Shown here one piece after another: positions 30,693-54,863 of a stretch of 62,182 nucleotides of DNA; positions within the stretch are counted from its first letter, which is position 1, and every line of letters begins with the position of its first letter. Under the pieces are notes generated by a model. That model saw nothing but the letters and a program-made list of their open reading frames with translations. It ran no database searches and had not been told where the DNA came from. The DNA comes from an uncultured Candidatus Nemicrothrix sp. (GTDB taxonomy: Bacteria; Actinomycetota; Acidimicrobiia; Acidimicrobiales; MedAcidi-G1). The translations under genes and the position numbers were made by a program. The stretch spans positions 1 through 62,182 of the forward strand of contig CAYWBE010000001.1 in assembly GCA_964456295.1 (NCBI GenBank). The letters are read 5' to 3'.

Positions 30693-30713
30693 GCGGTCGA
30701 ACCGGGCCGACGG

Positions 30714-31031
30714 TCAGCGGGGCCTGGTCGGCCGGTCGAAGGTCGCGTCGTCGACCCCGATCTGACGAGCCCATCGCCGGGCCCAGCGACCGGCCACCGG
30801 ATCCAGGTGATCGGCGGCCCCGACCAGCCAGTCCATCGGGAGTTCGTCGGTGACCCATCCCCGGTCGGTCAGTCTGAACCCACCGCGGGAGCCGAACCGG
30901 CCCGCCAGGAGGTAGAGGCCGAGGAAGTCGCCGTCCGGATCGGCCTCGGCCAGGTACACGCGGTCAGGCCTGGGGAGGCCATGGTCCCGGTAGTCCGGCC
31001 CCGGGCCGAGGGGGTCGATGTTGTTCGCCAT
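30714..31031 (-). CDS. hypothetical protein (105 aa)
   Basis: ORF with reasonable composition. I recognised no family. Confidence 0.4.
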   Translation of the reverse strand: MANNIDPLGPGPDYRDHGLPRPDRVYLAEADPDGDFLGLYLLAGRFGSRGGFRLTDRGWVTDELPMDWLVGAADHLDPVAGRWARRWARQIGVDDATFDRPTRPR

Positions 31032-31082
31032 GCCTGACCTGTACCGACCGGACGTGACGAAATCGGCCGACCGGCCCCAGGG

Positions 31083-31661
31083 TCACCCCAGTTCCACCGG
31101 CCTCGAGTAGAGGAGTTCGTGGATCATGCGCTGTGCGGCACCATCCGAGCGCCAGGGCGCCCCCGAACCGGAGGATGCCGCCGCCCCTGGTCTCCGCCGG
31201 GAGCGCATGCCGACCACCCGGTCATCGGGAACGGCCCGCAGCCCCGTGGCCCCGGCACCGTCGGCGGGTTGGTCGAGGGCCCACGAGAACGCGGCCTGCC
31301 GGAATGCCTCGACCCGTCGATCCTGACGTCGGACCTCGCGGTCGAGGTCGGCCAACTGCAGCAGACAGACGTACCCCGAGCCCTCGACCAGCGCGCCGAC
31401 CGCATCGGGGAGGGCAGCGAACGGAACCCGGCCAGCCTCACAGTCTTCGACCAGTTCCTCGTCCAGTCCGTGCTGCTCGGCGAAGGCCGCACGATCCGTC
31501 CCGATCACACCCCGGGCTGCCACCGCGGTGGCCGCGGCCACCGGGTGGACCAGTCCGGCCTCCCGGTAGCGGGTGGCCAGGCCCAGCACCGCGTGGGTCA
31601 TCTCCATGGGCATGCCCGGTGGGCCAGCCCGTCGGTCGCCCGCCCCCCGGTCGCCGATCAT
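31083..31661 (-). CDS. hypothetical protein, translationally coupled to the sigma-like gene
   Basis: The start is taken at ATG 31661, an ATGA overlap with the upstream stop. There is no TM segment and no ZAS motif. A possible short HTH is AFAEQHGLDEELVEDCEAG. Confidence 0.45.
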   Translation of the reverse strand: MIGDRGAGDRRAGPPGMPMEMTHAVLGLATRYREAGLVHPVAAATAVAARGVIGTDRAAFAEQHGLDEELVEDCEAGRVPFAALPDAVGALVEGSGYVCLLQLADLDREVRRQDRRVEAFRQAAFSWALDQPADGAGATGLRAVPDDRVVGMRSRRRPGAAASSGSGAPWRSDGAAQRMIHELLYSRPVELG

Positions 31662-32395
31662 GCGGCCAACCACCAGATCTCGAGCAACGGCACCAGCGAC
31701 GGGTCGTCGTCGATGGCGGCCAGCAGCTTCCGGCGGGTCCGCGAGAAGATCTGCCGGACGTTGTCGGGGCTGAGCCGGAACTCGCGGGCCACGGTGTGTG
31801 AAGGCGACGGGTCGCCGTTGGACCGCTGGACCACGTACTCCAGCACCACCTCGTAGTCACGCTCGGACGCCACCTCGCGCAACGTGTCCAGGAGGAGCCG
31901 GACGAACGGGTGGCGGCAGGCCAGGCGGACGAAGTCCTCCACGACCCGGTCCTCACCGGTCGACTCACCCGGCGCCGGTGGACGACCACCGGCATCCTCC
32001 CCCTCGTCGAACGACCCGTCGTCGAGGTCGGTCACCCGGTGGCCGACGGCGTCGTAGACCATGGCCCGGATGGCCATCGATGCCCACGTCCACGGCATCG
32101 CCCCACCGTCGGGGGACCAACCGGCCGCCCGGTCGCGGATCACCAGGCAGGCCCAGTTGACCAGACCGGTCATCTCGTCCTCGTCGCGCAGGATGTCGCG
32201 CCGGCCCATGTCCTCCAGCACCCGCCGGACCACGAAGCGCACCCTGTGCCCGTGCTCCTGGATGAGCGTGAAGAACGCCGCATCATCGCCACCCACGATG
32301 CGACGCATCAGATCGGCCACCTGCTCCCGATCGCCGCGGCCGGAGCCGCCATTCATTCCGTTGTTCGCCATTCCTCGCCAATTCCCTTTCGCCAA
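31658..32395 (-). CDS. divergent sigma-70/ECF-like RNA polymerase sigma factor (tentative)
   Basis: Region-2-like segment FFTLIQEHGHRVRFVVRRVLEDMG...EMTGLVNWACLVIRDRAAGW. Region-4-like HTH SERDYEVVLEYVV...HTVAREFRLSPDNVRQIFSRTRRKL. Alternative start at MANNGMNGG. Confidence 0.5.
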   Translation of the reverse strand: MAKGNWRGMANNGMNGGSGRGDREQVADLMRRIVGGDDAAFFTLIQEHGHRVRFVVRRVLEDMGRRDILRDEDEMTGLVNWACLVIRDRAAGWSPDGGAMPWTWASMAIRAMVYDAVGHRVTDLDDGSFDEGEDAGGRPPAPGESTGEDRVVEDFVRLACRHPFVRLLLDTLREVASERDYEVVLEYVVQRSNGDPSPSHTVAREFRLSPDNVRQIFSRTRRKLLAAIDDDPSLVPLLEIWWLAA

Positions 32396-32540
32396 TCACA
32401 CCGGAGAGTCGTTCCCCGACGTGCCTCCAGAATGACGATGGGGTGTGACATTCCTCGAAGACCCTTGAAACGACGGGGATCTGCAGGCGTCCACCCCACG
32501 CATCACCTGTTCGGCAGACGTGGCGTCGTCCCTCGCATGG

Positions 32541-32597
32541 GACGTACGGAACTGCTGTGACAGGGCCGTCACAGACCTGTCACGGACCCGTGACAGG
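32541..32597 (-). promoter_or_regulatory. TGTCACAG-N8-TACGTC promoter-like element plus two adjacent TGTCAC/GTGACA hairpins
   Basis: The minus strand reads ccTGTCACGGgtccGTGACAGGtcTGTGACggccctGTCACAGcagttccgTACGTC. The hairpins are 32555-32574 (7-bp stem) and 32576-32597 (8-bp stem). The element lies downstream of rmuC and upstream of the sigma-like gene. Confidence 0.4.
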
Positions 32598-32640
32598 CCC
32601 GCCGTAGGGCCGTATCGCTACCCGGGCAGGGCGGCCGGGC

Positions 32641-33882
32641 TCAGCTGTCGGCGTCGACCTCGTCAGCCGGAGTCGGCAGTTCGGCTGCCCGGAGGTCCCT
32701 CGGGACCACCTCGACGTCCGTCGGCAAGGCCAACTCGCCACTGCCCACCCCCAGGTCCGGGAACTTCCTCATGGTGGGCATCAGACGGTCGTCGACGGAA
32801 CCCACCAACTTGTTGTAGGCGCCGATCGCCGTTCCCAGGCCGCGACCGGTCTTGTCGACGTGCTCGAGCAGCGTCCCGACCCGGTCGTACAACTCAGTGC
32901 CCAACTCGGCGATCTCCCTCGCGTTCTCCGCCAACCGGGCCTGCTGCCAACCCCCGGCCACCGCCCACAGCAGGGCCAGCAGGTTCACCGGCGAGGCCAG
33001 GAGCACCCGCTGGGTCATGGCCTCCTGGAGCAGCCCGGGGTCGGCCCGCAGCGCGTCGGCCAGGAACGACTCACCGGGCACGAACAGCACCACGAACTCG
33101 GGCGACGGCTCACCGTCGGCCTCCCAGTACTTCTTCCCGGCCAGCGCCTTGACGTGGGCCTTCAGCGCCCCGGCATGGGCCTTCAACTCAGCGTCGACCA
33201 CCGCCTGGTCGGTGGCCTCCTGGGCACGCAGGTAGGCGTCCAGGGGAACCTTGGCGTCGACGAACAGCTGGGCGCCGTTGGGAAGCCGGACCTTCACGTC
33301 GGGCCGGATCCGATCACCGGCCCGGTTCTCGGCCGTGACCTGCTCGGTGAAGTCGCAGTACGGCTCCATGCCCGACAACTCGATGACGTTCCGGAGCTGG
33401 TTCTCACCCCAGGCACCCCGGGCCGACGACGAACGGAGCGCCTCGGTCAGGGTGGTGGTGCTGGTCTGCAGGTCCGACATCTGCCGACCCAGCTGCAGGG
33501 TCATGGCCCCCACCGCGCCCTTCTCCTTCTCGTGGGCGGCCTGGAGGTGGCCCACCGTCTCGCCCAACTTCTTCATCTGCTCGCCGAACGGACCGAGCAG
33601 CCCGCGGGTCTGCTCGTGGACCGCCCCCATCCGTTCGGTGGCCAGGGTCAGGAACTGGTCGTTGTTGTGCTTCAGGGCCGCCGACGCCGTTTCGGCCACC
33701 TGGGTCCCGACCTGGGCCCGGACCTCGGCACCGATCTGGGCGACCAGCGCCGCGGCGTCAATCTGCGATGCAGGTTCGGCCCCGCCCGGGCCGACCGGAG
33801 CGGGCCGGCGGAGGGCCCACACCACGGTCACGACCGTGACGAGGACGGAGAAGACGGCGACGAGGACCAGTGCAGTTTCCAT
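32641..33882 (-). CDS. rmuC: DNA recombination protein RmuC
   Basis: 413 aa. One N-terminal TM segment, a long coiled coil, and a C-terminal RmuC nuclease-like domain (ARGAWGENQLRNVIELSGM...DFTEQ...PDVKVRLPNG...FVDAK). Confidence 0.88.
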   Translation of the reverse strand: METALVLVAVFSVLVTVVTVVWALRRPAPVGPGGAEPASQIDAAALVAQIGAEVRAQVGTQVAETASAALKHNNDQFLTLATERMGAVHEQTRGLLGPFGEQMKKLGETVGHLQAAHEKEKGAVGAMTLQLGRQMSDLQTSTTTLTEALRSSSARGAWGENQLRNVIELSGMEPYCDFTEQVTAENRAGDRIRPDVKVRLPNGAQLFVDAKVPLDAYLRAQEATDQAVVDAELKAHAGALKAHVKALAGKKYWEADGEPSPEFVVLFVPGESFLADALRADPGLLQEAMTQRVLLASPVNLLALLWAVAGGWQQARLAENAREIAELGTELYDRVGTLLEHVDKTGRGLGTAIGAYNKLVGSVDDRLMPTMRKFPDLGVGSGELALPTDVEVVPRDLRAAELPTPADEVDADS

Positions 33883-33888
33883 GTGCCG

Positions 33889-33910
33889 AACGTAGGCGCG
33901 CCCTGTGACA
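33889..33910 (-). promoter_or_regulatory. RecA-NDp/PafBC-like promoter: TGTCACAG-N8-TACGTT, 6 nt before the rmuC ATG (leaderless)
   Basis: The minus strand reads ggtccTGTCACAGggcgcgccTACGTTcggcacATG. Confidence 0.45.
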
Positions 33911-33964
33911 GGACCGCGGAGGGAGGTGGAGGACGGGTCGAGGCAGCGCCCCGTCGGGTCACTC

Positions 33965-34003
33965 CGTCAGGTCGCCCCGTCAGGTCGCCCCGTCAGGTCG
34001 CCC
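33965..34003. repeat. 13-bp perfect tandem repeat x3 (cgtcaggtcgccc) spanning the PLD gene stop codon
   Basis: Units at 33965-33977, 33978-33990 and 33991-34003. On the minus strand each unit contains TGA, and a 13-nt period places a TGA in all three frames. Confidence 0.9.
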
Positions 34004-35432
34004 AGCCGGCGGGGTCGATGGCACAGGCGAAGCCGTTCCACGACCCACCGCCCGCCCGACTGGACGCGTTCTCCCGGGCCACCCCGATCAGGCGGGCCAG
34101 CGCGGTCCGGCCGTCCATGGCCTCCGAGTCGAAACCCCCCTGCTCGTCGACCTGACGCACCCGCAGGGACCGGGCGACGGCACCGGCCCCGGAACCGGCG
34201 TCCCAGAAGGACAGGTTCATCTCGGTGTCGCCCTGGAACGAACTGAACACGAGGTTGGTCGACCCGATGGTCGCCCAGACGTCGTCCACGACAGCCGTCT
34301 TGGCGTGCACGTACACCTCCTCGACGCCCCACGGTCGTCGCACCGCCGGAGCCGACAGGCAGAACCCGTCGTAGGCGGCCAACGACGCCAGGGCCTCGTA
34401 GCCGGCGGCGATCCCCGGGTGGGCCCGAGCGGCGGCCAGTTCGGGCATGGGGTCGCCGGGCACCGACGCCATCACCAGCACGCCCCGCTCCAGCGCCTCG
34501 CGCAAGGCCGCCAGCACCACCCGACTGAGCAGGACCTGGTCCTCGATGTAGACGTAGTCCCGTGCACCGGCGATGGCCGCCAGGTACTGCTCGCGCACCG
34601 AGTTCTCCCCGTCCGGTAGCTCCGGATAGAGGCCGGGCAGGACGCTGCGCTGCACCTGGGCCGTCGTCGGACCCGCCTCGACCGGGGCCAGGTCGACCGG
34701 ACGGGCCGACAGGTCGACCGTGCCGCCGGCGGGCCACGACCCGTGGGCACGACCCCGCTCCGAAGCGCCGTTCCAACGCATCACGAAGTTCTCGTGCACG
34801 TCGGCCACGCACGGCCCCCGCACCCCGCAGTGCACGTCGTGGATGTTGGAGTACCGCTCGCCCCGCTCGTAGCCCAGCGACGGGTCGGGCTCGCCGTGGT
34901 CCGGCCCGGCCATCGACCCCCGGGTGATGTTGATGCCACCCACGAAGGCCACCTCGTCGGTGGTCCCGGCGTCGACCAGCCACACCTTCTGGTGCTGGCA
35001 CTGCCACCCGACGGCGTCCCACCGGGCCTGCCACGCCGTGTCCCGCCCGGCCAGCAATGCCGACGACGACGCATCACCCGGGAAGGTGTCGTCGGCTCCG
35101 GCCGCATGGCCCAGGGGATGCCAGAACAGGACCCGGACGTCGACCCCCCGGGCCGCCGCGGCGTCCATCAGGTCGAGGAACGTGCCCCGCTGCCCGACAG
35201 AGCCGGGCCCCCCGGGGAACCGGGCCCCGACCTCGACGAAGGCCACGCACACCCACACCGAACTGGTGGCCGCCTCGACGGCCGCCGCGATCCGGTCGAA
35301 GGCCACCGCCCCGTCGACCAGCGGCACCACGAGGTTCCCCTCCCGGACGGGAAAGGCTCCGGTCGCCGGGGGGATCCGCGCCATCGGCCCTGACGTACCG
35401 GTCGGCCCGGTCGGATCTGTCGGGTCGGCCAC
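33993..35432 (-). CDS. phospholipase D / cardiolipin-synthase-like family protein with two HKD motifs
   Basis: 479 aa. HQKVWLVD and HAKTAVVDDVWATIGSTN. GTG start with TAGCGT 6 nt upstream. Confidence 0.83.
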   Translation of the reverse strand: MADPTDPTGPTGTSGPMARIPPATGAFPVREGNLVVPLVDGAVAFDRIAAAVEAATSSVWVCVAFVEVGARFPGGPGSVGQRGTFLDLMDAAAARGVDVRVLFWHPLGHAAGADDTFPGDASSSALLAGRDTAWQARWDAVGWQCQHQKVWLVDAGTTDEVAFVGGINITRGSMAGPDHGEPDPSLGYERGERYSNIHDVHCGVRGPCVADVHENFVMRWNGASERGRAHGSWPAGGTVDLSARPVDLAPVEAGPTTAQVQRSVLPGLYPELPDGENSVREQYLAAIAGARDYVYIEDQVLLSRVVLAALREALERGVLVMASVPGDPMPELAAARAHPGIAAGYEALASLAAYDGFCLSAPAVRRPWGVEEVYVHAKTAVVDDVWATIGSTNLVFSSFQGDTEMNLSFWDAGSGAGAVARSLRVRQVDEQGGFDSEAMDGRTALARLIGVARENASSRAGGGSWNGFACAIDPAGWAT

Positions 35433-35438
35433 GTCGGC

Positions 35439-35514
35439 ACGCTAGGTCGCCACCCGGGGCACCACCGGCAGGCCCGGCCCCGGCCACGCTCCACGACCTG
35501 CCCGATCGTAGGAT
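35439..35514. promoter_or_regulatory. back-to-back leaderless promoters (PLD gene leftward, amidotransferase gene rightward)
   Basis: The minus strand has TAGCGT (35444-35439) 6 nt before GTG 35432. The plus strand has TAGGAT (35509-35514) 8 nt before GTG 35523. Neither start has a Shine-Dalgarno sequence. Confidence 0.4.
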
Positions 35515-35522
35515 CCCGCCCC

Positions 35523-36224
35523 GTGAAGCGCGCACTGGTGGTGGAACACGACGAGGACGGTCCCGTCGAGGGTGTCGGCACACGCCTTGTGGAGCGTGGC
35601 TACGAGCTCGAGGTGTTCCGGGTCATGGAGGAGCGTGACGACCCGGTGTCGACCACCCCGTTCCCCGACCCCACCGACTACGACGTCGTGGTGGTGACCG
35701 GGTCGCCGCAGTCGGTGCTCGACGAGGCCATCGCCTCGTGGCTGGGCCGCGAGGTCGAGATGGTCCGTATCGCCCACGAATCCGACATCCCGGTGCTCGG
35801 TCTGTGCTTCGGCGGACAGGTCCTGTCCGTTGCCCTCGGCGGCACCGTGTCACGCACCGACACCCCGGAGTTCGGTTGGCAGATGATCGAGTCCGACCTC
35901 CCCGACGTGGTGCCGACCGGGCCGTGGTTCGAATGGCACTACGACTGCTTCACCGTGCCCGAGGGTGCCGTCGAGGTGGCCCGCAACGCCGTGTCCCCCC
36001 AGGTGTTCCGCATCGGGCGCAGCGTGGGCACCCAGTTCCATCCCGAGATCACGCCCCGCCTGGCCCAGTTCTGGATCGAGGGGGGCGGCGCCGAGGACCT
36101 TCGCCGACACGACGTCGATCCCCGGGCGCTGATCGCCGAGTCGGAGTCCCATGCCGAGGGCAACCGGGTCCGGGCCGACACCCTCGTGGACTGGTTCCTC
36201 GACGGGGACGGGGCCGGCGGCTGA
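35523..36224 (+). CDS. class I glutamine amidotransferase-like protein (COG0518 / GMP-synthase-type GATase domain only)
   Basis: 233 aa. Cys-His-Glu triad contexts VLGLCFGGQ and TQFHPE. Confidence 0.8.
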   Translation: MKRALVVEHDEDGPVEGVGTRLVERGYELEVFRVMEERDDPVSTTPFPDPTDYDVVVVTGSPQSVLDEAIASWLGREVEMVRIAHESDIPVLGLCFGGQVLSVALGGTVSRTDTPEFGWQMIESDLPDVVPTGPWFEWHYDCFTVPEGAVEVARNAVSPQVFRIGRSVGTQFHPEITPRLAQFWIEGGGAEDLRRHDVDPRALIAESESHAEGNRVRADTLVDWFLDGDGAGG

Positions 36225-36248
36225 TCCCCTGGAGGTCGGACCGTGCGG

Positions 36249-37124
36249 TCAGGCCGTCCAGCCGTCGTCGGGGCGACCGAACCACATGTGGACCTGGCCG
36301 GTGCCGGCCGTCGACTGGTACTCGGAGTACCGGACGCCCTTCGCCGTGCAGTCCCGGCCTCCGAGCGCCCCGACCATCATGAGGTAGTGGCCGAACAGGC
36401 CCTCGGGGGCGTGGCGCCGGTAGTCGTCGTAGCCGTCGATCACCGGGGCGTGGGCGCCAGCCTCCCAGGCGGCCACCACGGCCTCGTCGGCGGCCCGGGC
36501 CTCCGGGGTGACCACGTTGGCCGGGTCGGACGACTCGTGGTCGCGGAACTCCCGCAACGGCCAGAAGCGGTGGCTCATACCGCCGGAGCCCAGCAGCACG
36601 ACCCGGCGATCCAACCCGGCGACGGCGTCGGCCAGCATGCGGCCCCACAGGAGGAAGTCCTCGGCGCCAGCCGTGCCGCAGATGCTGGTCGTCAGCCAGC
36701 GCTCGTCGCCCTGCAGGAAGCCCAGCAGGTTGACCGTCGGGTAGTGGATGGGCAGATGGGGGTCGTCGACGGCGGAGATCCAGGTCCCGTGGTCGGGGGC
36801 CGCGTCCGCCAGGGCGTGGGCCAACTCGGGATCGCCGGGGATGTCGTAGGGCATGGCCGACATGCCGCGGGGGAGTTCCTCGGAGGTGTAGTGGCCGGTC
36901 CGACGTTCGTGGGAGGCCACCACCATCTCGATCAGGCTGAACCAGTGGGTGTCGAACACCACGTAGGTGTCGGCGCCCAACGGGTCGAGGCACTCGGATC
37001 GCATCCGGTGGAGGCCGGGGACGAGGTCGATCTCCTCGCCGTCGTTGAGCTCGAGGCGGACCTCCGGCGGCAGCACGATGGGTGGCACGTGCGACACCAC
37101 GGCCGCTCCGACGATCTCACCCAT
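36249..37124 (-). CDS. class III extradiol dioxygenase, LigB family (single subunit)
   Basis: 291 aa. MGEIVGAAVVSHVPPI, FDTHWF and GSGGMSHRFW are LigB-type His motifs. TAGGCT lies 6 nt before the ATG. Confidence 0.8.
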   Translation of the reverse strand: MGEIVGAAVVSHVPPIVLPPEVRLELNDGEEIDLVPGLHRMRSECLDPLGADTYVVFDTHWFSLIEMVVASHERRTGHYTSEELPRGMSAMPYDIPGDPELAHALADAAPDHGTWISAVDDPHLPIHYPTVNLLGFLQGDERWLTTSICGTAGAEDFLLWGRMLADAVAGLDRRVVLLGSGGMSHRFWPLREFRDHESSDPANVVTPEARAADEAVVAAWEAGAHAPVIDGYDDYRRHAPEGLFGHYLMMVGALGGRDCTAKGVRYSEYQSTAGTGQVHMWFGRPDDGWTA

Positions 37125-37140
37125 GTCCGAAGCCTATTCG

Positions 37141-37152
37141 TTTGGTCCCTAA
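37141..37152 (-). promoter_or_regulatory. 12-mer TTAGGGACCAAA (read on the minus strand) 16 nt upstream of the LigB-family gene start
   Basis: The plus strand reads tttggtccctaa. The identical 12-mer lies at the identical spacing at 59995-60006. Confidence 0.5.
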
Positions 37153-37171
37153 TGATTCAAACGCGGCGGGC

Positions 37172-38584
37172 TCAGGCCCTCCTGCGCCCATCGGGCGCCG
37201 GGGACGGCGGGTCGTCCGCGAGGCCGTCCAGCACCGCGGCCACCGCCGCCGCCCGGGTGGTCGGGTTCACGAAGCAGAGCCGCAGCACCGGACGACCCTC
37301 CCACCGGGTGGGCAGGCACAACACGGTTCCCGCCCGGGCGTGGTGGACCGACCAGGCCTCGTAGTCGGCCATCTCCCAGCCCACCCGCTCGAGCAGGACC
37401 ACCGACAGGTCGGGCTCCATGACGAGTTCCAGGTGGTCCCGGGCCCGCACCTCGTCGACCACGGTCCGGGTGGTGGCCAGCACGGTCTCGACGGCCTCGC
37501 GGTACCGGTCGGTGCCGTGGGTGGCCAGGGAGAACCAGAAGGGCAGGCCCCGGGCCCGACGGGTCAGATGGACGGCCAGGTCGGCCGGGTTCCACTCGGC
37601 CCGGTCCACCATCTCCAGGTAGTCGGCGAACTGGGAGTGGGCAGCCATGCCGTGCTCCGGTTCCTGGTACAGCAGCGCGCAGCAGTCGTAGGGGGCGAAC
37701 AGCCACTTGTGGGGGTCGACCACGAAGGAGTCGGCGTGCTCGATGCCGGCGAACAGGTGGGCCACCGACGGGGCGACCAGGGCCGCGCCCCCGTAGGCCC
37801 CGTCCACGTGCAACCACAGGCCCCGTTCCCGACACACGTCGGCCACGCCTGACAGGTCGTCGACCACCCCGGAGTTGGTCGTCCCGGCCGAGGCCACCAC
37901 GGCGAACGCGCCCGACACGCCGTCCGCCTCAGCGGCTGCATCGAGGACGGCTGCCAGGGCGTCACCCGTCATGCGACCCCGTTCGTCCGCCGCCACCTCG
38001 AGCACGTCGCAGTCCATGACCCGGGCCGCGGCACGGACCGAACTGTGGGCGTCACCGGTGGCCGCCAACCGCCACCGACCCGAGGGGCCCGGCCCGAGGC
38101 CCCGGTCCCGGGCCCGCTCCCGGCCGGCCACCAGGGCGCTCAGGTTGCCCATGGTGGCCCCGGAGACGAAGCAGCCGCCGGCCGTGTCGGGCCAGCCGGC
38201 GAGGGCGGCCAGCCAGGCCAGGGCCTGGTTCTCCGCGGCGATGGCCCCCGCTCCGGCCTCCCAGGTCCCGGCGAACATCTCCGCCGCGCTGACCGCCAGG
38301 TCGAAGACGAGCGAGGCCTCGGTGGGCGCGGCGGGTACGTAGGCCAGGTTCATTGGGTTGTCCTGGGCCCGTGTGGCCGGGACCATCACCTGGGTGAAGA
38401 GGCGGAGCGCCTCGTGGCCCCCGATGCCCTCGGGAACCACCGTGTCGCCCAGGTCGGCAGCCAGCTCGTGGGCTGGACGGGCCCGGGCCTGCGGGTCCTG
38501 CCCACCCACGATCCGCCTCCAACTCCAGTCCATGACGGAGCGGAGCAACCGTTCGTCGTGCGGCCAGAACCGCTCGCCGGTCAC
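37172..38584 (-). CDS. group II PLP-dependent decarboxylase (aromatic amino acid / glutamate decarboxylase family)
   Basis: VSGATMGNLSAL, HVDGAYGGAAL and the PLP-lysine context SFVVDPHKWLFAPYDC. The start is set at GTG 38584, a GTGA overlap with the MarR stop. The 1003-aa track ORF extension is antisense to real genes. Confidence 0.87.
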   Translation of the reverse strand: MTGERFWPHDERLLRSVMDWSWRRIVGGQDPQARARPAHELAADLGDTVVPEGIGGHEALRLFTQVMVPATRAQDNPMNLAYVPAAPTEASLVFDLAVSAAEMFAGTWEAGAGAIAAENQALAWLAALAGWPDTAGGCFVSGATMGNLSALVAGRERARDRGLGPGPSGRWRLAATGDAHSSVRAAARVMDCDVLEVAADERGRMTGDALAAVLDAAAEADGVSGAFAVVASAGTTNSGVVDDLSGVADVCRERGLWLHVDGAYGGAALVAPSVAHLFAGIEHADSFVVDPHKWLFAPYDCCALLYQEPEHGMAAHSQFADYLEMVDRAEWNPADLAVHLTRRARGLPFWFSLATHGTDRYREAVETVLATTRTVVDEVRARDHLELVMEPDLSVVLLERVGWEMADYEAWSVHHARAGTVLCLPTRWEGRPVLRLCFVNPTTRAAAVAAVLDGLADDPPSPAPDGRRRA

Positions 38585-39102
38585 CGGTCGTCGAGGTCCT
38601 CGACGGTCCGCAGCACCTTCCGGAGCAGGCGGGCCAGGGCGGCCGTCTCGTCGTCGGTGAGCGCCGACGTGACCTGGGCCTCCTCGCGGTTGAAGGCCGG
38701 CATGACCTCGTCGACCACCCCCATACCCGGCCCTGTCAGGACCACCTCGACCCGTCGGCGGTCGGCGGGGACGGGCCGGCGTTCCACCATGCCCTTTCGC
38801 TCCAGGGTGTCCAGCACCCCGGTCAGGGTGCCTCCGGAGATCCCGGCCTCGGCGGCCAGGTCCCGCGACTCCTGGGGACCCCAGATCCGCAGTACGAACA
38901 GGACCACGAAGGCGCTCCACGACAGGCGGTGGGGACGCAGGACGTCGCGCTCCATGTGGTTGCGGACCGCGGTGGCCGTCCGGAACACGTTGGAGACGGC
39001 GGCGAGCGACAAGAGGTCGAGGTCGAGGCCGGCCATCCGGTCCCGGATGAGCCGTTCGGCCTCGACGAGTTCGTCGTCTCCGGCGGCGAAGGCGCGGGGC
39101 AT
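38581..39102 (-). CDS. MarR-family transcriptional regulator
   Basis: 173 aa. wHTH RPHRLSWSAFVVLFVL...SRDLAAEAGISGGTLTGVLDTLERKGMVERR...DRRR. TAGTGT lies 6 nt before the ATG. Confidence 0.85.
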   Translation of the reverse strand: MPRAFAAGDDELVEAERLIRDRMAGLDLDLLSLAAVSNVFRTATAVRNHMERDVLRPHRLSWSAFVVLFVLRIWGPQESRDLAAEAGISGGTLTGVLDTLERKGMVERRPVPADRRRVEVVLTGPGMGVVDEVMPAFNREEAQVTSALTDDETAALARLLRKVLRTVEDLDDR

Positions 39103-39115
39103 GGACGCACACTAC

Positions 39116-39135
39116 ATTTCGGATCCAAACGAAAT
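39116..39135. promoter_or_regulatory. inverted repeat ATTTCG-N8-CGAAAT in the divergent MarR / GS-like promoter region
   Basis: atttcggatccaaacgaaat. The core ggatccaaacgaa resembles gggaccaaacgaa of the 37.1-kb site. It overlaps the MarR -10 region, which would allow autoregulation. Confidence 0.4.
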
Positions 39136-39184
39136 TCACCCCGGCTCCGACGCCCGTCGGCGGCCACCGACCCCGGAATCGACC

Positions 39185-40498
39185 ATGACCGACCACCGCC
39201 GCATCCGCGTCCTCTGGCCCGACCACCTGGCCCTCCCCCGGGGCAAGTACCTGCCGCCCGACCTGGCCCACCGGGGCACCCGCCACTCCATGTCGGTGTT
39301 CACCCTCCTGTACGACCGCGACCTGATCCCGGCGCCCGGAACCCGCATGCTCGAGGGCTTTCCCGACATGGAGTGCACCATCGACATGGACGGCGTGCGC
39401 GACGGCTGGGAGGAGGGCGTCGGCGTGGTCGTCGGCGACCTCGTCGAGGGCGACGAGCCGGTCCCCTTCGCCCCCCGAAACGTCCTGAAGGACGCCGTGG
39501 CCGCCTGGGAGGCGCTCGGCTACACGTCGAAGGTGGGCATCGAGTACGAGGCGTTCGTGCTGCAACCCGACGGCGAGGGCGGCTGGGACCCCTACGACGT
39601 CCCCGGCTCGTTCGTCTACGGCACCGGGCCGATGAACGACCCGGCGGGCATCGCCGAGGCCATCCACGACGTGGCCGACGCCGTGGGCTTCAGGATGGAG
39701 TCGGTCAACGCCGAGTTCGACGCCGCCCAGTTCGAGTTCACCCTCCGGTACGACGACGCCCTGGCGGCCGCAGACGAGGCGTTCCTGTTCCGGACCATGG
39801 CCCGTGACGTGGCCTACGAGATGGGCCACCTCCTGACCTTCCTCCCCCGCCCCCTCATGGATCGGGGCGGCAACGGCGTGCACGTCAACCTGAGCCTCGT
39901 CGATGGCGACGGGAACAACGCCCTGCTCGACCCGACCGGCGGCGACGGCCTGTCCGACCTGGCCCGCCAGTGCATCGCCGGGCAGCTCCACCACCTGTCG
40001 GCCATGGGCGCGGTGTGCGCCCCCAGCGTCAACTCCTACAAGCGCCTGCGACCCGGCCAGATGTCCGGCTACTGGGCCAACTGGGGGCATGACCACCGGT
40101 GCGCCACCGTCCGGGTCAACCCGGAGCGGGACGACTCGACCCGATTGGAGAACCGGATGCCCGACGCCACGTCGCCCATCCACACCACGGTGGCCGCCGT
40201 GCTGACCGCGGCCCGGCTCGGCGTGGAGGCCGGGCTGGACTGCCCCGATGCGGAGACCGGCGACGCCCTGGAGGAGGCCTGCACCGACCGGTTCGTGGCC
40301 GACTCGCTCGGTGGGGCACTCGAGGCGCTGGCCGCCGACGACGCCTTCGCCGACGCCCTGGGGCGGGGGCTGGTCGACCAGCTGGTGGCCATCAAGGAAG
40401 CCGAGGTGGGCAAGTACGTCGAGGCGGTGGGCGACGAGGCCTCGGCCCGCGACGAGTTCACCGACTGGGAGAAGGCGTTCTACCTGCCGTACCTGTAG
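39185..40498 (+). CDS. glutamine synthetase-family gamma-glutamyl ligase (GS-like, catalytic domain)
   Basis: The start is taken at ATG 39185 (MTDHRRIRVLWPD). NAEFDAAQFEFTL, GNGVHVNLSL, NSYKRL and RLENRMPD are GS catalytic-domain motifs. Confidence 0.85.
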   Translation: MTDHRRIRVLWPDHLALPRGKYLPPDLAHRGTRHSMSVFTLLYDRDLIPAPGTRMLEGFPDMECTIDMDGVRDGWEEGVGVVVGDLVEGDEPVPFAPRNVLKDAVAAWEALGYTSKVGIEYEAFVLQPDGEGGWDPYDVPGSFVYGTGPMNDPAGIAEAIHDVADAVGFRMESVNAEFDAAQFEFTLRYDDALAAADEAFLFRTMARDVAYEMGHLLTFLPRPLMDRGGNGVHVNLSLVDGDGNNALLDPTGGDGLSDLARQCIAGQLHHLSAMGAVCAPSVNSYKRLRPGQMSGYWANWGHDHRCATVRVNPERDDSTRLENRMPDATSPIHTTVAAVLTAARLGVEAGLDCPDAETGDALEEACTDRFVADSLGGALEALAADDAFADALGRGLVDQLVAIKEAEVGKYVEAVGDEASARDEFTDWEKAFYLPYL

Positions 40499-40522
40499 GG
40501 AGCGCCCGCGAGCCGGGATCCC

Positions 40523-41185
40523 TCAGACGGAACCGACGCCCCGACGGATGTGGGCCAGCATCTCGGCCTCGGCCCGGTCCGGGTCGCCGGACAGGACGGC
40601 GTCGGCCAGCAGGCGGTGCTCGTCGACGTCCACCGTCGTGCCGTGCCGGGCCGACTCGGCGAAGGACAGCGCCGCCAGGCCGCGGCCCCAGATGGCGTCG
40701 AAGCAGTCGACGACGACCGGGTTCCCCGCTGCCTCCACCACCGCCCGGTGGAAGTCCCGGTTGGCCCGGTAGGCCTCCGACCCGGGCAGGGCCGTCCCCG
40801 AGGCCTCGGCCAGCCGGTCCAACGCCGCGGTGATCGGTCCGGCCGCCTCGTCGGAACGGGCGGCGACCATCCGGACCGCCCAGCCCTCCACCGGCTCCCG
40901 GGCCTGGTACATGGCCCGCACGTCGTCGATTCCGGGGGTCCGGATGACGAATCCCTTGGTGGCCGCCTCCACCAGGCCGTCGGACTCCATCCGCCGCAGC
41001 GCATCGCGCACCGGCGTCCGGGAGATCCCGAGGTCCTCGGCCAAGCGGTCCATGATGAGCCGGTCGCCGGGACCGAAGCCGCCGTCCAGCACGGCGGCGA
41101 GGATCCTCTCGTACGCCACCTCGGCCAGGCTCGGCGCCCCGGCGCCGATGGGAACCAACGCGGCCGGAACGGTCGCCGGGCTCAT
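40523..41185 (-). CDS. GntR-family regulator (FadR/FCD subfamily)
   Basis: 220 aa. N-terminal wHTH LAEDLGISRTPVRDALRRMESDGLV plus a helical FCD-like C-terminal domain. It is the last gene of the operon. Confidence 0.85.
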   Translation of the reverse strand: MSPATVPAALVPIGAGAPSLAEVAYERILAAVLDGGFGPGDRLIMDRLAEDLGISRTPVRDALRRMESDGLVEAATKGFVIRTPGIDDVRAMYQAREPVEGWAVRMVAARSDEAAGPITAALDRLAEASGTALPGSEAYRANRDFHRAVVEAAGNPVVVDCFDAIWGRGLAALSFAESARHGTTVDVDEHRLLADAVLSGDPDRAEAEMLAHIRRGVGSV

Positions 41186-42408
41186 GAACCCGGCTCCGAC
41201 GGGGGGTCCTCCCGCGGGAGGAACCCGCCCCGACCCTGGGGGAGCTTCATGTCCAGCACCCTCGAGGCCACCACGGTGCGAAGGATCTGGGCCGTGCCTC
41301 CGCCGATGGTGAACATCCGGACGTCCCGGCAGATCCGCTCCATCGGGTTGTTGCGTGAATAGCCGGCGGCCCCGAACAGTTGGAGTGCGTCATTGGCCAC
41401 GTCGATGGCCGTCTCCGAGGTGAACACCTTGGCCTGGGCGGCCATCGACGGGTCCGGGAACGGGCTGCCGTCGGGTCCCCGGGACGCGGCGGCCCTCCAG
41501 GTCAGGCTCCGGGCCGCCTCCAGGCGGATGGCCATGTCGGCCAGCATCCACTGGACGCCCTGGAACTCGGCCACCGGTCGGCCGAACTGCTCCCGATCCT
41601 TCACGAAGGACACGGCCCGGTCGTGGGCGCCGGCGGCCAGGCCGAGGGCCACCGTGCCCGCCCCCACCCGCTGGCTGTTGTAGGCGTTCATGAGCTCGGC
41701 GAACCCGCGCCCGAACCCCGACGGCGGGACCAGCACCATGTCGGGCCCGACCACCATGTCCCGGAGCAGGATCTCCGTCTCCGGGATGCCCCGCAGGCCC
41801 ATGGTCGGCTCTCGGCGACCCACCACCAGGCCCGGGTTCTCGCCCCGGACGGCCAGGAAGCCGCCGATCCCCTCCTCGGTTCCGTCCTCGTCGAAGACCC
41901 GGGCGAAGACCAGGTGGAGGCGGGACACGCCGCCACCGGTGATCCAGTGCTTGCCGCCGTTCAGGACGAACGAGTCGCCACGGCGGTCGGCCCGGGTGGT
42001 CATCTGCGAGGCCGCACTGCCGGCCTCCGGTTCGGTGATGCAGATGGCCGGCTTGTCGCCGTCCAGCACCATGCCGGCGGCCAGCCTCCGTTGGGCATCG
42101 GTGCCGTAGGCCATGACGGCCGAGATGGCACCCATGTTGGCCTCCACGGCGATCCGCCCGGTCACCCCGCACGCACGCGCCATCTCCTCGACGACCAGCA
42201 CGGCGTCCAGGAACGAGTGGCCGGGGCCGCCGTACCCGGCGGGCACCGTCATGCCGGTGAACCCGGCGTCACGGAGCGCCTCGACGACGTCCCACGGGTA
42301 CTCCTCGGTGCGGTCCACCTCGGCGGCCCTGGGGGCCACCACCTCGGCGGCCAGCGCCCTGGCCCGGGCCCGCAGGGCCTCCTGCTCCTCGGTCAGGTGC
42401 CAACTCAC
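41182..42408 (-). CDS. acyl-CoA dehydrogenase
   Basis: 408 aa with ACAD N, middle and C-terminal domains (ITEPEAGSAASQM, KHWITGG, and a C-terminal TIGGGTAQI-type motif). Confidence 0.9.
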   Translation of the reverse strand: MSWHLTEEQEALRARARALAAEVVAPRAAEVDRTEEYPWDVVEALRDAGFTGMTVPAGYGGPGHSFLDAVLVVEEMARACGVTGRIAVEANMGAISAVMAYGTDAQRRLAAGMVLDGDKPAICITEPEAGSAASQMTTRADRRGDSFVLNGGKHWITGGGVSRLHLVFARVFDEDGTEEGIGGFLAVRGENPGLVVGRREPTMGLRGIPETEILLRDMVVGPDMVLVPPSGFGRGFAELMNAYNSQRVGAGTVALGLAAGAHDRAVSFVKDREQFGRPVAEFQGVQWMLADMAIRLEAARSLTWRAAASRGPDGSPFPDPSMAAQAKVFTSETAIDVANDALQLFGAAGYSRNNPMERICRDVRMFTIGGGTAQILRTVVASRVLDMKLPQGRGGFLPREDPPSEPGS

Positions 42409-43613
42409 GATTCGTCCTCCTCGTTCCCGACGCGACCCTCGACCACGTCGGTCCAGCGTTCCAGGATGTCGGCGGCCGACGCCTCGCCCAGCACAGCGCC
42501 CAGGCGGTGGATGGCCCCCGGTGTCTCCAACAGTCGCGGCACCACACCCGGCACGGTCATCGGGCCGATCGTCGGATGCTCGACGGTGACCACCGAGTCG
42601 CGGGCCGCCACCTGCGGGTGGGCCAGGTAGTCACCGACGGTCCGGACCAGGCCGACGGGCACCACGGCACCCTCGCAGCCGGCCACCACGCCGTCGACCG
42701 GGGTGGTGGCCACCCAGTCGCCGACCACCATGTTGACCAACTCCCGGTTGGCGATGCGGGCCGAGTTGGTGGCGAAGCGGTCGTCGTCCAGCAGGTCGGT
42801 GCGCCCCATGACCCCGGCCAGGCGGTCGAACATCCGGTCGTTGGTGCAGGCGATGGTCAGCCACCGGCCGTCGACGGTCCGGTAGTTGCTGTGGGGCACC
42901 GACCGGTGCGTGTCGGGCCCCATCCGGTCGCGCCCGATGCCGGTGGCCGCGTAGAGGGGCACCAGCTCGTCGAGGACGCGGGCGATCCCGTCGTACAGGG
43001 CCACGTCGACCAACTGGCCCCGGCCGCTGGCCTCGCGTGCCTTCAGGGCCAGCATCACCCCGAGGGCCCCGTACAGGCCGGCCACGTAGTCGGCCAGGCC
43101 CGACGAGCCGGTCAGGGCGGGGGCGCCGTCCGGCTCGCCGGTCAGCTCCGCGAACCCGGTGAACGCCTCGGCGATGCGGGCCACGCCGGCCGTGGCGGCC
43201 AGCGGGCCGGTGCGGCCGTAGCCGCTGACCGACAGTTGCACCAGGCCGGGGTTGGAGGCCCGCAGGTCCTCGAAGCCAAGGCCCCACCGCTCCATGGTCC
43301 CCGTCCGGTAGTTCTCGACCAGCACGTCGGCCCGGTCGACCATCGAGCGAAACGCCTCGGCCCCCTCGTCGGTTCGCAGGTCGACCTCGACGCTCTCCTT
43401 GTTCCGGGTGTCGCTCAACCACCACCAGGTGTCGCCCTCAGGACCGGCCGTGCCGAGACGCCGCATGGGGTCGCCCACGCCGGGCTGCTCGACCTTGACG
43501 ACGTCGGCTCCGAACTCGCCGAGGACCGACGCCGCGAACGGTCCAGCCAGGATGGTCGCCGCGTCGACGACCCGCAGGCCGTCGAGGGGACGCACCGACC
43601 CGCCCCCGCTCAC
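42405..43613 (-). CDS. family III CoA-transferase (CaiB/BaiF; the alpha-methylacyl-CoA racemase family belongs here)
   Basis: 402 aa. LRVVDAATILAGPFAASVLGEFGADVVKVE is the family signature. Confidence 0.87.
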   Translation of the reverse strand: MSGGGSVRPLDGLRVVDAATILAGPFAASVLGEFGADVVKVEQPGVGDPMRRLGTAGPEGDTWWWLSDTRNKESVEVDLRTDEGAEAFRSMVDRADVLVENYRTGTMERWGLGFEDLRASNPGLVQLSVSGYGRTGPLAATAGVARIAEAFTGFAELTGEPDGAPALTGSSGLADYVAGLYGALGVMLALKAREASGRGQLVDVALYDGIARVLDELVPLYAATGIGRDRMGPDTHRSVPHSNYRTVDGRWLTIACTNDRMFDRLAGVMGRTDLLDDDRFATNSARIANRELVNMVVGDWVATTPVDGVVAGCEGAVVPVGLVRTVGDYLAHPQVAARDSVVTVEHPTIGPMTVPGVVPRLLETPGAIHRLGAVLGEASAADILERWTDVVEGRVGNEEDES

Positions 43614-44866
43614 CGGGAGGCCTCCACCGGCAGATGGGCCACGCCGTTCACGAAGTTGGACGACACCGACTGCGGCTCACCGGCCAGCCGCAGCCGCAGG
43701 CCGCGGCGCAGCACCTCGGCCACCAGTTCGGCCAGCTCGATGCGGGCCAGCGAGGCGCCGAGGCAGAAGTGGGCGCCGCCCCCGCCGAAGGCCACGTGGC
43801 CCGGGACCCGGGGTCGTCCCACGTCGAAGGCCCGCGGATCGGCGAAGTGCGCCTCGTCGAAGTTGGCGCTGGCGTACCACATGACGACCTTGTCGCCCGC
43901 CGCCACCTCGGTGCCGGCCAGCACCGTGTCGACGGTGGCCGTGCGGCGGAAGTAGAGGATGGGCGAGGCGTGTCGCACCACCTCCTCCACGGCCCCGTCC
44001 AGCAGGTCGCCGTCGGCCCGCACCCGGTCGAACTGGTCCTCGTGCTCCACCAGGTGGACCGCCAGGTGGGCCATGGCCGACCGGGTGGTCTCGTTGCCGG
44101 CGAAGATCATCAGTTGGAAGAAACGGGCGTACTCGGTCTCGGTGAGCCGCTCGCCGTCCACCTCGGCCACCGCCAGTTGGGTGAGGAGGTCGTCGCGGGG
44201 GTTCGCCAACCGGTCCCGGCGGGCCCGACGGGCGTACTCCTCGACCCCGAAGGCCGCCGGGCTGTTGAAGGGGAGTTCCCGCAGCGGCTTGGTGTTTCCG
44301 TAGGCGCCGGGGTCCAACTCGGCCGACGAGGTGCCCTCCACCAGGTGGTCGGTCATCTCGATCATCAGGTCGTGGTCGGATTCGGGCACCCCCATGAGGG
44401 CGCAGATCACGCCGATGGGGATGGGGGCCGCCACCTCGGACACCCAGTCGCCGCCCCCGGCCGCCTCCAGGGCGTCGAGCCGCCCGCCGATGCGCCGCCG
44501 TACGTCGCCCACGTAGTCCTGGACGTGCTTCGGGGTGAAGGCCGAGCTGACCAGGCGTCGCAACCGGGTGTGGATGGGCGGGTCCAGGTCGATCATGGAC
44601 GCCCGGGCGTCGCGTACGTCCTCGTCCACGTCGTAGATCTGGATGTGGCCGACCGCCGACGAGAAGGTGGTGGTGTCCCGGGAGACGGCGACGAGGTCGT
44701 CGAGGCGGGTGACCGACCAGAAGGCGGAACCCCACGGCCCGTCCGGATTCCGCACCAGGCCGGGCGTGGCCCGCAGTTCGGCGAACCGTTCGTGCGGGAT
44801 GCCCCGGTCGTAGGTGGCCGGGTCGGCCAGGTCGGACCGGACCGCCGATCGCTCGATCGTGGTCAC
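43610..44866 (-). CDS. cytochrome P450 (no. 3), CYP125/124-like
   Basis: The start is set at GTG 44866, a GTGA overlap with the TTC38-like stop. FAGNETTRSA, EEVVRH, FGGGGAHFCLG. Confidence 0.9.
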   Translation of the reverse strand: MTTIERSAVRSDLADPATYDRGIPHERFAELRATPGLVRNPDGPWGSAFWSVTRLDDLVAVSRDTTTFSSAVGHIQIYDVDEDVRDARASMIDLDPPIHTRLRRLVSSAFTPKHVQDYVGDVRRRIGGRLDALEAAGGGDWVSEVAAPIPIGVICALMGVPESDHDLMIEMTDHLVEGTSSAELDPGAYGNTKPLRELPFNSPAAFGVEEYARRARRDRLANPRDDLLTQLAVAEVDGERLTETEYARFFQLMIFAGNETTRSAMAHLAVHLVEHEDQFDRVRADGDLLDGAVEEVVRHASPILYFRRTATVDTVLAGTEVAAGDKVVMWYASANFDEAHFADPRAFDVGRPRVPGHVAFGGGGAHFCLGASLARIELAELVAEVLRRGLRLRLAGEPQSVSSNFVNGVAHLPVEASR

Positions 44867-46131: not shown

Positions 46132-46174
46132 GTCCGCATACCGTATACGATAATGAACCAGGAATCGACACGGC

Positions 46175-46193
46175 CGAGGGCCGGCGGCCCTCG
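46175..46193 (-). terminator. 8-bp GC stem hairpin downstream of the ferredoxin gene
   Basis: cgagggcc-ggc-ggccctcg. It is followed, in the direction of transcription, by the AT-rich stretch 46129-46170, which contains the palindrome CGTATACG and the TTC38-operon -10. Confidence 0.4.
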
Positions 46194-46213
46194 ATCCTCC
46201 CGGATGGAGCCCC

Positions 46214-46438
46214 TCAGTCCTCCCGGATGGAGATGGCGCCGCTCGGGCAGCGGTCGACCAACTCGAGGGCACGGGCGCGAGGCAGGTCGGCCCCGTCGAC
46301 CACCCGCGAGATGGCGTCCTCGTCGCCGAGGCGGAACACGTCGGGCTCCAGCAGCTCGCACTGGCCGATGCCGATGCACCGGTCCTCGTCGACGGCCATC
46401 GACACCCGCTCCCCGCCCGTCCCGTCCGGTCCGGACAT
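46214..46438 (-). CDS. small [3Fe-4S]/[4Fe-4S] ferredoxin (P450 redox partner type)
   Basis: 74 aa. VDEDRCIGIGQCELLEPDVF...DRCPSGAISI shows the CxxGxxC...CP pattern. TGATG overlap with P450 no. 4. Confidence 0.8.
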   Translation of the reverse strand: MSGPDGTGGERVSMAVDEDRCIGIGQCELLEPDVFRLGDEDAISRVVDGADLPRARALELVDRCPSGAISIRED

Positions 46439-47700: not shown

Positions 47701-47735
47701 GGTGGTCCTCTCGTCCACGGAGCCGAGCCGGTGGC

Positions 47736-50160: not shown

Positions 50161-50170
50161 GAGCCCCCCA

Positions 50171-54837: not shown

Positions 54838-54863
54838 CGGCGACCTCCTCCTCGCGCTCGGCC

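Follow-up and report, generated by a model that had tools for sequence, protein, structure and literature searches.

The described systems closest to the gene set reported here, which occupies positions 35,523 to 40,498 of a 62,182-nucleotide stretch of DNA (the window) from an uncultured Candidatus Nemicrothrix sp., couple an amine to glutamate, cleave an aromatic ring, or do both. In the putrescine utilisation (Puu) pathway of Escherichia coli (PuuA, PuuB, PuuC and PuuD), the ligase acts first, the glutamyl-protected amine is then oxidised, and an aldehyde dehydrogenase (ALDH) and a Peptidase_C26 hydrolase finish the breakdown. The Hpa/Hpc meta-cleavage pathway for homoprotocatechuate comprises HpaD/HpcB, HpaE, HpaG, HpaH, HpaI and HpaR. 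In methanofuran biosynthesis, the tyrosine decarboxylase MfnA supplies tyramine to MfnD, which ligates it to the gamma-carboxyl of glutamate. Amine ligases that resemble glutamine synthetase (GS) form a recognised class, GoaS (PMC11335346). The isopropylamine (Ipu) pathway, known from Pseudomonas sp. KIE171 and from Arthrobacter aurescens TC1, consists of the ligase IpuC, a cytochrome P450 with ferredoxin and reductase, and the hydrolase IpuF; as summarised in PMC6776027, which cites de Azevedo Wasch 2002, the P450 oxidises gamma-glutamyl-isopropylamide and not the free amine before the amidotransferase-like enzyme frees glutamate. In the AtdA1-A5, TdnQTA1A2B and NpaA1-A5 systems for aniline, chloroaniline and 1-naphthylamine, a two-component Rieske dioxygenase oxidises the conjugate and the ring-bound nitrogen is removed (PMC11335346).

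When set beside these systems, the five genes at 35,523-40,498 would, as we are moderately inclined to believe, represent the left half of one regulon that is under MarR control and serves the breakdown of an arylalkylamine made from an aromatic amino acid. The first three steps would be Ipu-like and the later ones would resemble Hpa meta-cleavage, and the set falls outside every curated equivalog family tested. The DNA comes from a 2.1-Mb metagenome-assembled genome (G000) that is 78.6% complete, and the window covers positions 1-62,182 of its contig C1, which extends 9.4 kb further. As the window has 72% G+C, third-position GC was used for gene calling, while protein families in the window were assigned by Pfam and curated equivalogs by NCBIfam cut-offs. 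The five genes are:

35523-36224, + strand: class I amidotransferase-like protein (GATase), 233 aa (Pfam GATase E 8e-15)
36249-37124, - strand: single-subunit LigB-family extradiol dioxygenase, 291 aa (Pfam LigB E 3e-23)
37172-38584, - strand: group II PLP-dependent amino-acid decarboxylase, 470 aa, with DPHKW motif (Pfam Pyridoxal_deC, PF00282, E 3e-56)
38581-39102, - strand: MarR-family regulator, 173 aa (Pfam MarR, PF01047, E 4e-14)
39185-40498, + strand: GS-like ligase, 437 aa (Pfam Gln-synt_C E 5e-75)

All five had been named in the original prediction, and third-position GC frames, Pfam and public gene calls agree on them; public gene callers placed the same five on four identical seawater metagenome contigs. 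The MarR and GS-like genes are divergent with an 82-nt gap, and the amidotransferase and LigB genes are convergent with a gap of 24 nt. The decarboxylase starts with a GTG at 38584, which shares the sequence GTGA with the MarR stop. Both the junction and the next 17 codons are kept in four related loci (L001, L003, L004 and L005; comparison loci are written with L) with changes mostly in third position, and an internal ATG of the decarboxylase is not kept in L005, so that the translational coupling of the DPHKW-bearing decarboxylase to the MarR gene, as predicted, is supported. Likewise, the Cys-His-Glu triad that had been read as intact in the amidotransferase corresponds to C95, H173 and E175, which are invariant in cluster-linked homologues, and the single-subunit nature of LigB agrees with the lack of any gene for a LigA-like small subunit adjoining it.

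What did not stand is the description of the locus as compact; it seems instead to be half of a regulon whose other half begins at 59 kb and passes the window end. The genes for a fumarylacetoacetate hydrolase (FAH)-family enzyme, an acetoacetate-decarboxylase-like (ADC-like) protein and a P450 lie 18.6 kb downstream of the ligase in this genome:

59064-59930, - strand: enzyme of the FAH family (isomerase, decarboxylase or hydratase of HpaG/MhpD-like type), with identities of 90% to the L003 FAH, 74% to the L086 FAH and 69% to the L033 FAH (the last with Pfam FAA_hydrolase E 5e-56)
60023-60835, + strand: MppR-like enzyme of the ADC superfamily, 270 aa, 64% identical to the L055 protein (Pfam ADC E 2.5e-54)
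~60832-62115, + strand: cytochrome P450 of the CYP125/124 clan, with 85% identity to the P450 encoded after the ADC-like gene in L003

The likely start of the P450 is a GTG overlapping the ADC-like stop as GTGA, a start being possible anywhere in 60784-60832. Past the window end, the contig encodes a NicX-like protein, a protein of acyl-CoA-dehydrogenase fold (ACAD-fold), two ALDHs and an amidase. In L002 and L003, whose ligases are 85% identical to that of the window, the FAH, ADC-like and P450 genes come straight after the ligase gene, and as these two loci lack the stretch 40523-59063, we regard it as an intervening island outside the regulon.

The two halves appear to be tied into one regulon by a shared palindrome. 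The LigB and ADC-like genes are each preceded by the same 12-mer, and this belongs to an 18-bp palindrome, TCRTTTGG-NN-CCAAAYGA, of which some relatives have perfect copies; at up to 3 mismatches it has 2 matches in the window against 0.06 expected by chance. The 2.1-Mb genome has exactly four copies of the 12-bp core TTTGGNNCCAAA with one mismatch at most, and all of them lie in promoters belonging to the set: at 37141 (decarboxylase/LigB gap), 39118 (MarR/ligase divergent region), 59995 (FAH/ADC-like divergent region) and 66127 on the contig (ALDH/ALDH divergent region). The putative operators within the window are:

37138-37155: O1, an imperfect 18-bp palindrome with two mismatches to TCATTTGGNNCCAAATGA, its edge 13 nt upstream of the LigB start codon
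39115-39132: O2, imperfect, in the MarR/GS-like divergent region, with the core TTTGGNNCCAAA at 1 mismatch at 39118, 12 nt from the MarR start codon
59992-60009: O3, between the divergent FAH and ADC-like genes, 13 nt before the start codon of the latter, with the spacing of O1

The distance from palindrome edge to start codon is thus 12-13 nt for the MarR, LigB and ADC-like genes. O2 has a complete right half-site CCAAACGA and a degenerate left one, and the same position carries a site in L001, L003, L004 and L005; at the position homologous to O3 the palindrome is present in L002 and L003, and it also lies beside the ADC-like gene in ~20 Poriferisocius-type loci. Across 81 loci, over which decarboxylases were also counted, the core palindrome gave 73 matches against 13.9 in shuffles, nearly all of them intergenic and adjoining cluster genes, in loci that include Poriferisocius, soil actinobacteria, one Chromatiales genome and one Acidobacteriota genome. 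The whole-genome core search found no copy in the intervening island and, unlike for the other units, none in the amidotransferase promoter (35433-35522).

The MarR protein is presumed to be the repressor of this regulon, and we infer that it binds the palindrome. It has the winged-helix MarR domain, and the palindrome overlaps its own and its target promoters, both being features of the MarR family. HpaR is its nearest curated family (NCBIfam TIGR02337), with 53 bits against a cut-off of 121 that leaves it outside the equivalog. Among four genomes tested, orthologues of 45-53% identity are encoded in or near the locus in three and on a separate small contig in the fourth; in two of the tested genomes the orthologue (45% identical) lies ~10-11 kb beyond the fetched locus. 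Some palindrome-bearing loci have no MarR gene within 8 kb.

The conservation of the set was assessed by scanning one genome per species for relatives of the ligase, of which 198 were confirmed in genome contigs. Partner genes were counted within 8 kb by tblastn of this genome's proteins against the best 80 of these 198 loci, representatives being confirmed by Pfam. LigB was found near the ligase in 64 of the 80 loci, the ADC-like protein in 60 and a P450 at least 40% identical in 52, followed by Peptidase_C26 (36), the GATase-like protein (33), ALDH (27), a NicX-like and ACAD-fold pair (26), the FAH-family enzyme (25), an alpha/beta hydrolase (25) and MarR (23). The conserved core is the GS-like ligase, LigB, the ADC-like protein and the P450. 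The carriers are Acidimicrobiia (many of them sponge-associated Poriferisocius), other Actinomycetota, Acidobacteriota (Vicinamibacteria, Marinacidobacterium), Gammaproteobacteria (Chromatiales, Pseudomonadales) and the cultured alphaproteobacterium Kordiimonas marina A6E486, whose ligase orthologue is at L049:7953-9272, and they come from ordinary seawater, sponge, lake and peat, not from polluted sites. Gene order varies among the carrier groups, L055 being a tight operon of GS-like ligase, P450, ADC-like and LigB genes, and because the same families recur together in many phyla with differing orders, their co-location goes beyond chance. As for the co-occurrence of the five genes in other genomes, the exact combination is confined to the close relatives L001-L005, whereas the families, LigB foremost, do co-occur across phyla. 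In Lacisediminihabitans (Microbacteriaceae, L086) one block encodes ferredoxin reductase (FdR), ferredoxin (Fdx), FAH, LigB, ALDH, C26, MarR, P450, decarboxylase, GATase, GS-like ligase, ADC-like protein and an amino-acid permease.

The ligase is probably a glutamate-amine (gamma-glutamyl amide) ligase and fits the GoaS class. The metal, ATP and glutamate motifs of true GS align in it (E-x-E, NAE...QFE, G-N-G-x-H-x-N-x-S, NSYKRL and R-x-E-N-R-x-P-D). In its flap, the canonical PGYEAP reads PGQMSG, without the canonical GS flap glutamate, and because its alignments to true GS start at residues 61-87, the N-terminal GS site (Asp/Ser of the DGSS motif) is not conserved; we take the flap Glu and the DGSS Asp/Ser to be the ammonium site in the E. 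coli and Salmonella enzymes. Assignment as a GlnA, type III GS or gamma-glutamylputrescine synthetase equivalog was rejected, all three scores being below cut-off (172 against 429 for TIGR00653, 216 against 470 for TIGR03105 and 196 against 650 for NF045547). No canonical glnA, which was sought as an in-genome reference, came to light in this genome of 78.6% completeness; outside C1, the best match to Gln-synt_C (G000:C173:1-1450) likewise has no canonical GSI signature DGSS. The amidotransferase-like protein, whose nearest structure is the stand-alone glutaminase 7D54 of M. smegmatis (E 1e-43), is probably a gamma-glutamyl-amide hydrolase.

The decarboxylase scores below every NCBIfam equivalog cut-off (87 bits against 299 for the MfnA model), and its ESM Atlas and public homologue names are generic only. 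Its structure matches are the desferrioxamine-pathway enzyme 5o5c (153 bits), the R. gnavus enzyme 4obu (150), which we take to be a tryptophan decarboxylase, and DOPA decarboxylase (136). Pyridoxal_deC genes are present in ~17 of the 81 clusters and belong to three lineages, 27-38% identical between lineages; the two other than that of the window score best to 4obu and are also close to DOPA decarboxylase. A homologue 61% identical to the window enzyme lies inside the complete Lacisediminihabitans cluster, and one of 62% identity stands alone in Actinomadura, beside an aconitase gene, so that the family is wider than this cluster. The repeated recruitment of alpha-amino-acid decarboxylases speaks for a primary amine of amino-acid origin as the ligase substrate, and the ring-cleavage enzymes speak for an aromatic amino acid as its source; the amine would most plausibly be tyramine or dopamine.

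LigB has HpaD_Fe (TIGR02298) as its nearest curated family, at 129.6 bits against an equivalog cut-off of 315.95, and 3,4-dihydroxyphenylacetate 2,3-dioxygenase 8iq8 as its nearest structure (E 5e-20, against E 3e-7 for aminophenol dioxygenase). Its residues H12, H60, E241 and H185, which we take to match H12/H61/E242/H195 of LigAB in that order, are invariant in seven cluster-linked homologues and supply the iron ligands (two His and one Glu) and the catalytic His of PF02900. As LigB and MarR are nearest to HpaD and HpaR, so are ALDH and FAH nearest to HpaE and HpaG. The ADC-like protein matches best the structure of MppR (4jm3, E 7e-65), followed by Sbi00515 and Swit_4259, and its Lys-Lys pair K126-K127 is invariant among homologues. 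MppR, Sbi00515 and Swit_4259 (4jm3, 4zbo and 5upb) form a Schiff base with 2-oxo acids and show hydratase or pyruvate aldolase-dehydratase activity. We take MppR to be biosynthetic (enduracididine) and Swit_4259 to lie in an aromatic-degradation cluster; to our knowledge, the natural roles of Sbi00515 and Swit_4259 are not known. The ADC-like protein here has the same fold and Lys-Lys pair as these three but stands in a fixed partnership with LigB, P450 and GS-like ligase, and it is a probable Schiff-base hydratase or aldolase acting on a 2-oxo acid. The best structures for the P450 are CYP125 proteins (E 2e-115).

In the pathway proposed here, the PLP decarboxylase would turn an aromatic amino acid, most plausibly tyrosine or DOPA, into tyramine or dopamine, and the GS-like ligase would couple this amine to the gamma-carboxyl of glutamate with the use of ATP. 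Such an opening is like that of methanofuran biosynthesis, where a group II decarboxylase also leads through tyramine to a conjugate with the glutamate gamma-carboxyl; MfnD, however, is an ATP-grasp enzyme and not GS-like, and that route is anabolic and without ring cleavage. The P450 with a ferredoxin would then hydroxylate the gamma-glutamyl amide, as in Ipu, to give a catechol. The set is like Ipu, at the level of gene roles, in bringing together a ligase of GS-like type, a P450 plus ferredoxin and a hydrolase resembling amidotransferases: the ligase and the ADC-like/P450 unit share the operator, the GATase gene is at 35523 and a ferredoxin gene is at 46214-46438 in the island. Ipu differs in serving a small aliphatic amine with no ring cleavage, decarboxylase, ADC-like or FAH enzyme, whereas ligase and P450 are here tied to a LigB meta-cleavage set. 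It is because of the P450 that the system resembles Ipu more than the aniline (Atd/Tdn) systems, and among the analogies drawn earlier with aniline, isopropylamine and putrescine pathways, that with isopropylamine is the nearest, while the aniline type with its Rieske enzyme fits less well.

The HpaD-like LigB would next cleave the ring, the glutamyl group keeping the side-chain amine from cyclising onto the ring-fission product, and ALDH, FAH and the MppR-like ADC-fold enzyme, in place of HpaE, HpaG and HpaH/HpaI, would give pyruvate and a gamma-glutamyl amino-aldehyde. Carbon counting from the homoprotocatechuate pathway would make these products pyruvate and gamma-glutamyl-4-aminobutanal. 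The resemblance to Hpa lies in LigB, which is nearest to LigB-type HpaD, in MarR, nearest to HpaR, and in the ALDH and FAH that occupy the places of HpaE and HpaG; unlike in Hpa, no HpaH or HpaI was seen and an MppR-like ADC-fold enzyme is present instead, and the substrate is probably an amine or glutamyl amide and not an acid. Finally, an ALDH and the amidotransferase-like or C26 hydrolase would release GABA and glutamate, as PuuC and PuuD do. The proposed end product of the ring-cleavage steps is the substrate of PuuC, but the ligase is far below the Puu-type cut-off (196 bits against 650) and its substrate here would be aromatic. No PuuB/DAO-type oxidase is present among the annotated regulon genes, no search having been aimed at it. 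MarR would repress all units through the one palindromic operator until a pathway intermediate appears. In outline, this is the gamma-glutamyl route from aromatic amino acid through arylethylamine and conjugate to ring cleavage of the original prediction, which is favoured by the 64 of 80 loci with LigB, the three decarboxylase lineages and the full Lacisediminihabitans set, but which had missed the P450 and the second half of the regulon.

A wider proposal is more tentative, and we rate it as possible rather than probable: that this is a widespread, undescribed tyrosine-amine route in which a gamma-glutamyl protecting group would be kept through P450 hydroxylation and ring cleavage, the route would end in gamma-glutamyl-4-aminobutanal and so in Puu-type chemistry, the MppR-like enzyme would have a natural catabolic role, and control would be by a MarR and palindrome pair conserved from Actinomycetota to Proteobacteria.

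Several observations weigh against the reading of the locus as an arylalkylamine regulon. All five proteins score below the NCBIfam equivalog cut-offs, because of which no function can be transferred from curated families. The window decarboxylase is as near to the desferrioxamine-pathway enzyme as to an aromatic one. The CYP125/124 clan is known for terminal hydroxylation of aliphatic chains and not of rings. The NicX-like and ACAD-fold partners fit nowhere in the proposed scheme. The Lacisediminihabitans ligase (L086:10181-11560) is only 37% identical to the first ligase of the window and 30% to the second, which lies in the island; at that identity a different GS-like lineage apparently fills the same role there. 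Further, ~15 Acidobacteriota loci have a very divergent P450 and neither a gamma-glutamyl hydrolase nor an ALDH within 8 kb, owing to which they fit less well a glutamyl group carried through ring cleavage.

Part of this evidence would suit the main rival, which we consider unlikely: a different course for the same amine, where hydroxylation by the P450 falls on the carbon beside the amide nitrogen, the resulting carbinolamide yields glutamine and an arylacetaldehyde, an ALDH gives 4-hydroxyphenylacetate or homoprotocatechuate, and LigB is a genuine analogue of HpaD. On this view the glutamyl tag would serve deamination and nitrogen capture as glutamine, and the hydrolases, as is reported for AtdA2, would do no more than recycle conjugate in excess. 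Such a course is in keeping with LigB, MarR, FAH and ALDH all being nearest to Hpa enzymes and with the two ALDH genes of the regulon, and the ACAD-fold flavoprotein could carry out the ring hydroxylation required for 4-hydroxyphenylacetate derived from tyramine. The minimal Acidobacteriota operons cut both ways, as they have no gamma-glutamyl hydrolase but no ALDH either. However, GATase and C26 hydrolase types are both conserved in many clusters, suggesting that the amide persists into later steps, and in the Ipu pathway as summarised in the source cited above the P450 hydroxylates a distal carbon, after which the amide is hydrolysed.

That the substrates are instead ring-bound arylamines of the aniline or aminophenol type, handled as by Atd, Tdn and Npa with the P450 in place of the Rieske dioxygenase and the decarboxylase as a passenger, appears very unlikely. 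The likeness is real in so far as a GoaS-class GS-like ligase and a GATase-like hydrolase start aromatic amine breakdown in those systems and the ring is cleaved later, the pairing being the AtdA1/AtdA2 and NpaA1/NpaA2 arrangement (PMC11335346), and aminophenol dioxygenases do belong to the LigB family. By similarity, however, LigB stands far nearer to homoprotocatechuate dioxygenase (E 5e-20) than to the aminophenol enzyme (E 3e-7), and alpha-amino-acid decarboxylases, which imply a side-chain amine, joined the cluster at least three separate times, one of them being translationally coupled in the operon. A P450 stands here where those systems have the Rieske enzyme: Rieske genes had nine matches in the genome, none of them on contig C1, and none among the called genes of L081 or L086. 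The carriers, besides, are not from polluted sites.

A biosynthetic function, in which a DOPA-type extradiol product, protected for a time by glutamate, would go on to form a heterocycle or pigment, seems highly improbable. The nearest solved relative of the ADC-like protein, MppR, is an enzyme of mannopeptimycin biosynthesis, and LigB-family DOPA dioxygenases produce betalamic acid (PMC11926856). Set against this, the constant partners are catabolic (an HpaR-like repressor, the enzymes FAH, ALDH and alpha/beta hydrolase, and uptake by an amino-acid permease and by ABC systems with binding proteins), neither NRPS or PKS genes nor tailoring genes were seen, and the set is spread over small-genome marine and soil bacteria of several phyla. 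That the five genes are merely neighbours of unrelated function, to which the restriction of the exact set to L001-L005 and the amidotransferase promoter without an operator might point, is hardly credible in view of the co-occurrence of the families across phyla, the genome-unique palindrome before four units of the set and the overlap of the MarR and decarboxylase genes.

A literature search, which left out most subscription journals, found no published description of this gene combination, in line with the earlier remark that no description of it was known. What this locus adds is a split regulon whose halves are reunited by a genome-unique operator, its conservation across phyla and three independent recruitments of a decarboxylase. 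If the arylalkylamine reading is true, many uncultured marine, sponge-associated, lake and soil bacteria would share an undescribed use of tyramine- or dopamine-like amines as carbon and nitrogen source, and gamma-glutamyl tagging would extend from small aliphatic amines and anilines to arylalkylamines with later ring cleavage. The MppR-like branch of the acetoacetate decarboxylase superfamily, whose members have so far been without a natural role, would gain one, and the regulator with its operator, being conserved across phyla, would offer a way to search for the inducer. The cluster could further be these carriers' tyrosine catabolism in place of the usual route, as homogentisate 1,2-dioxygenase (PF04209) had no match in six carrier genomes (G000, L012, L055, L041, L049 and L062); this is weakly suggestive, since only 1 of 14 control genomes has the enzyme and its absence therefore says little.

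The intervening island and the genes that flank the five-gene locus comprise:

33993-35432: PLD-like gene (two-HKD-type), flanking
40523-41185: GntR/FCD regulator, flanking on the ligase side
40523-59063: intervening 18.6-kb island, with Pfam matches to GntR/FCD, ACAD, family III CoA-transferase, two CYP125-like P450s, ferredoxin, a second GS-like ligase, zinc ADH, another ACAD, Peptidase_C26 and an ABC transporter
46214-46438: island ferredoxin
47736-49094: island second GS-like ligase
52198-52989: island Peptidase_C26
56495-58960: island ABC transporter with fused double binding protein

The island looks like a second, separate gamma-glutamylation system, in which an aliphatic amine may be oxidised and then pass to beta-oxidation. 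Its ferredoxin and C26 hydrolase could serve the regulon as well; a ferredoxin-reductase homologue is encoded on another contig of this genome, and in L086 both Fdx and FdR lie inside the cluster. The island also encodes a 422-aa protein without Pfam match, beside the P450s and the ferredoxin.

Beyond the window, at G000:C1 62362-64588 (L088:3362-5588), a 345-aa protein paired with the ACAD-fold protein has no Pfam match and is named NicX / peptidase M29 by ESM Atlas with a score of 0.98, which serves as a lead only. The NicX-like/ACAD-fold pair accompanies the ligase together with an alpha/beta hydrolase and C26 in ~26 loci, three of which (L037, L048 and L051) show no LigB or ADC-like gene. 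NicX together with an alpha/beta hydrolase of NicD-like type would point to the opening of a ring of dihydroxypyridine type.

Three RNA-labelled runs contained 8-13% of the sampled words, and over 30001-50000 they gave scattered contigs of ~150 nt from module and non-module genes alike; one of the three is probably DNA and two are oligo-dT libraries. In L003, the amidotransferase gene is followed by an overlapping extra P450 gene that is absent from the window. The PLD-like gene lies directly upstream of the amidotransferase gene and divergent from it; it is not kept there in the more distant clusters, and it is kept in L001, L002 and L004 with 76-79% identity.

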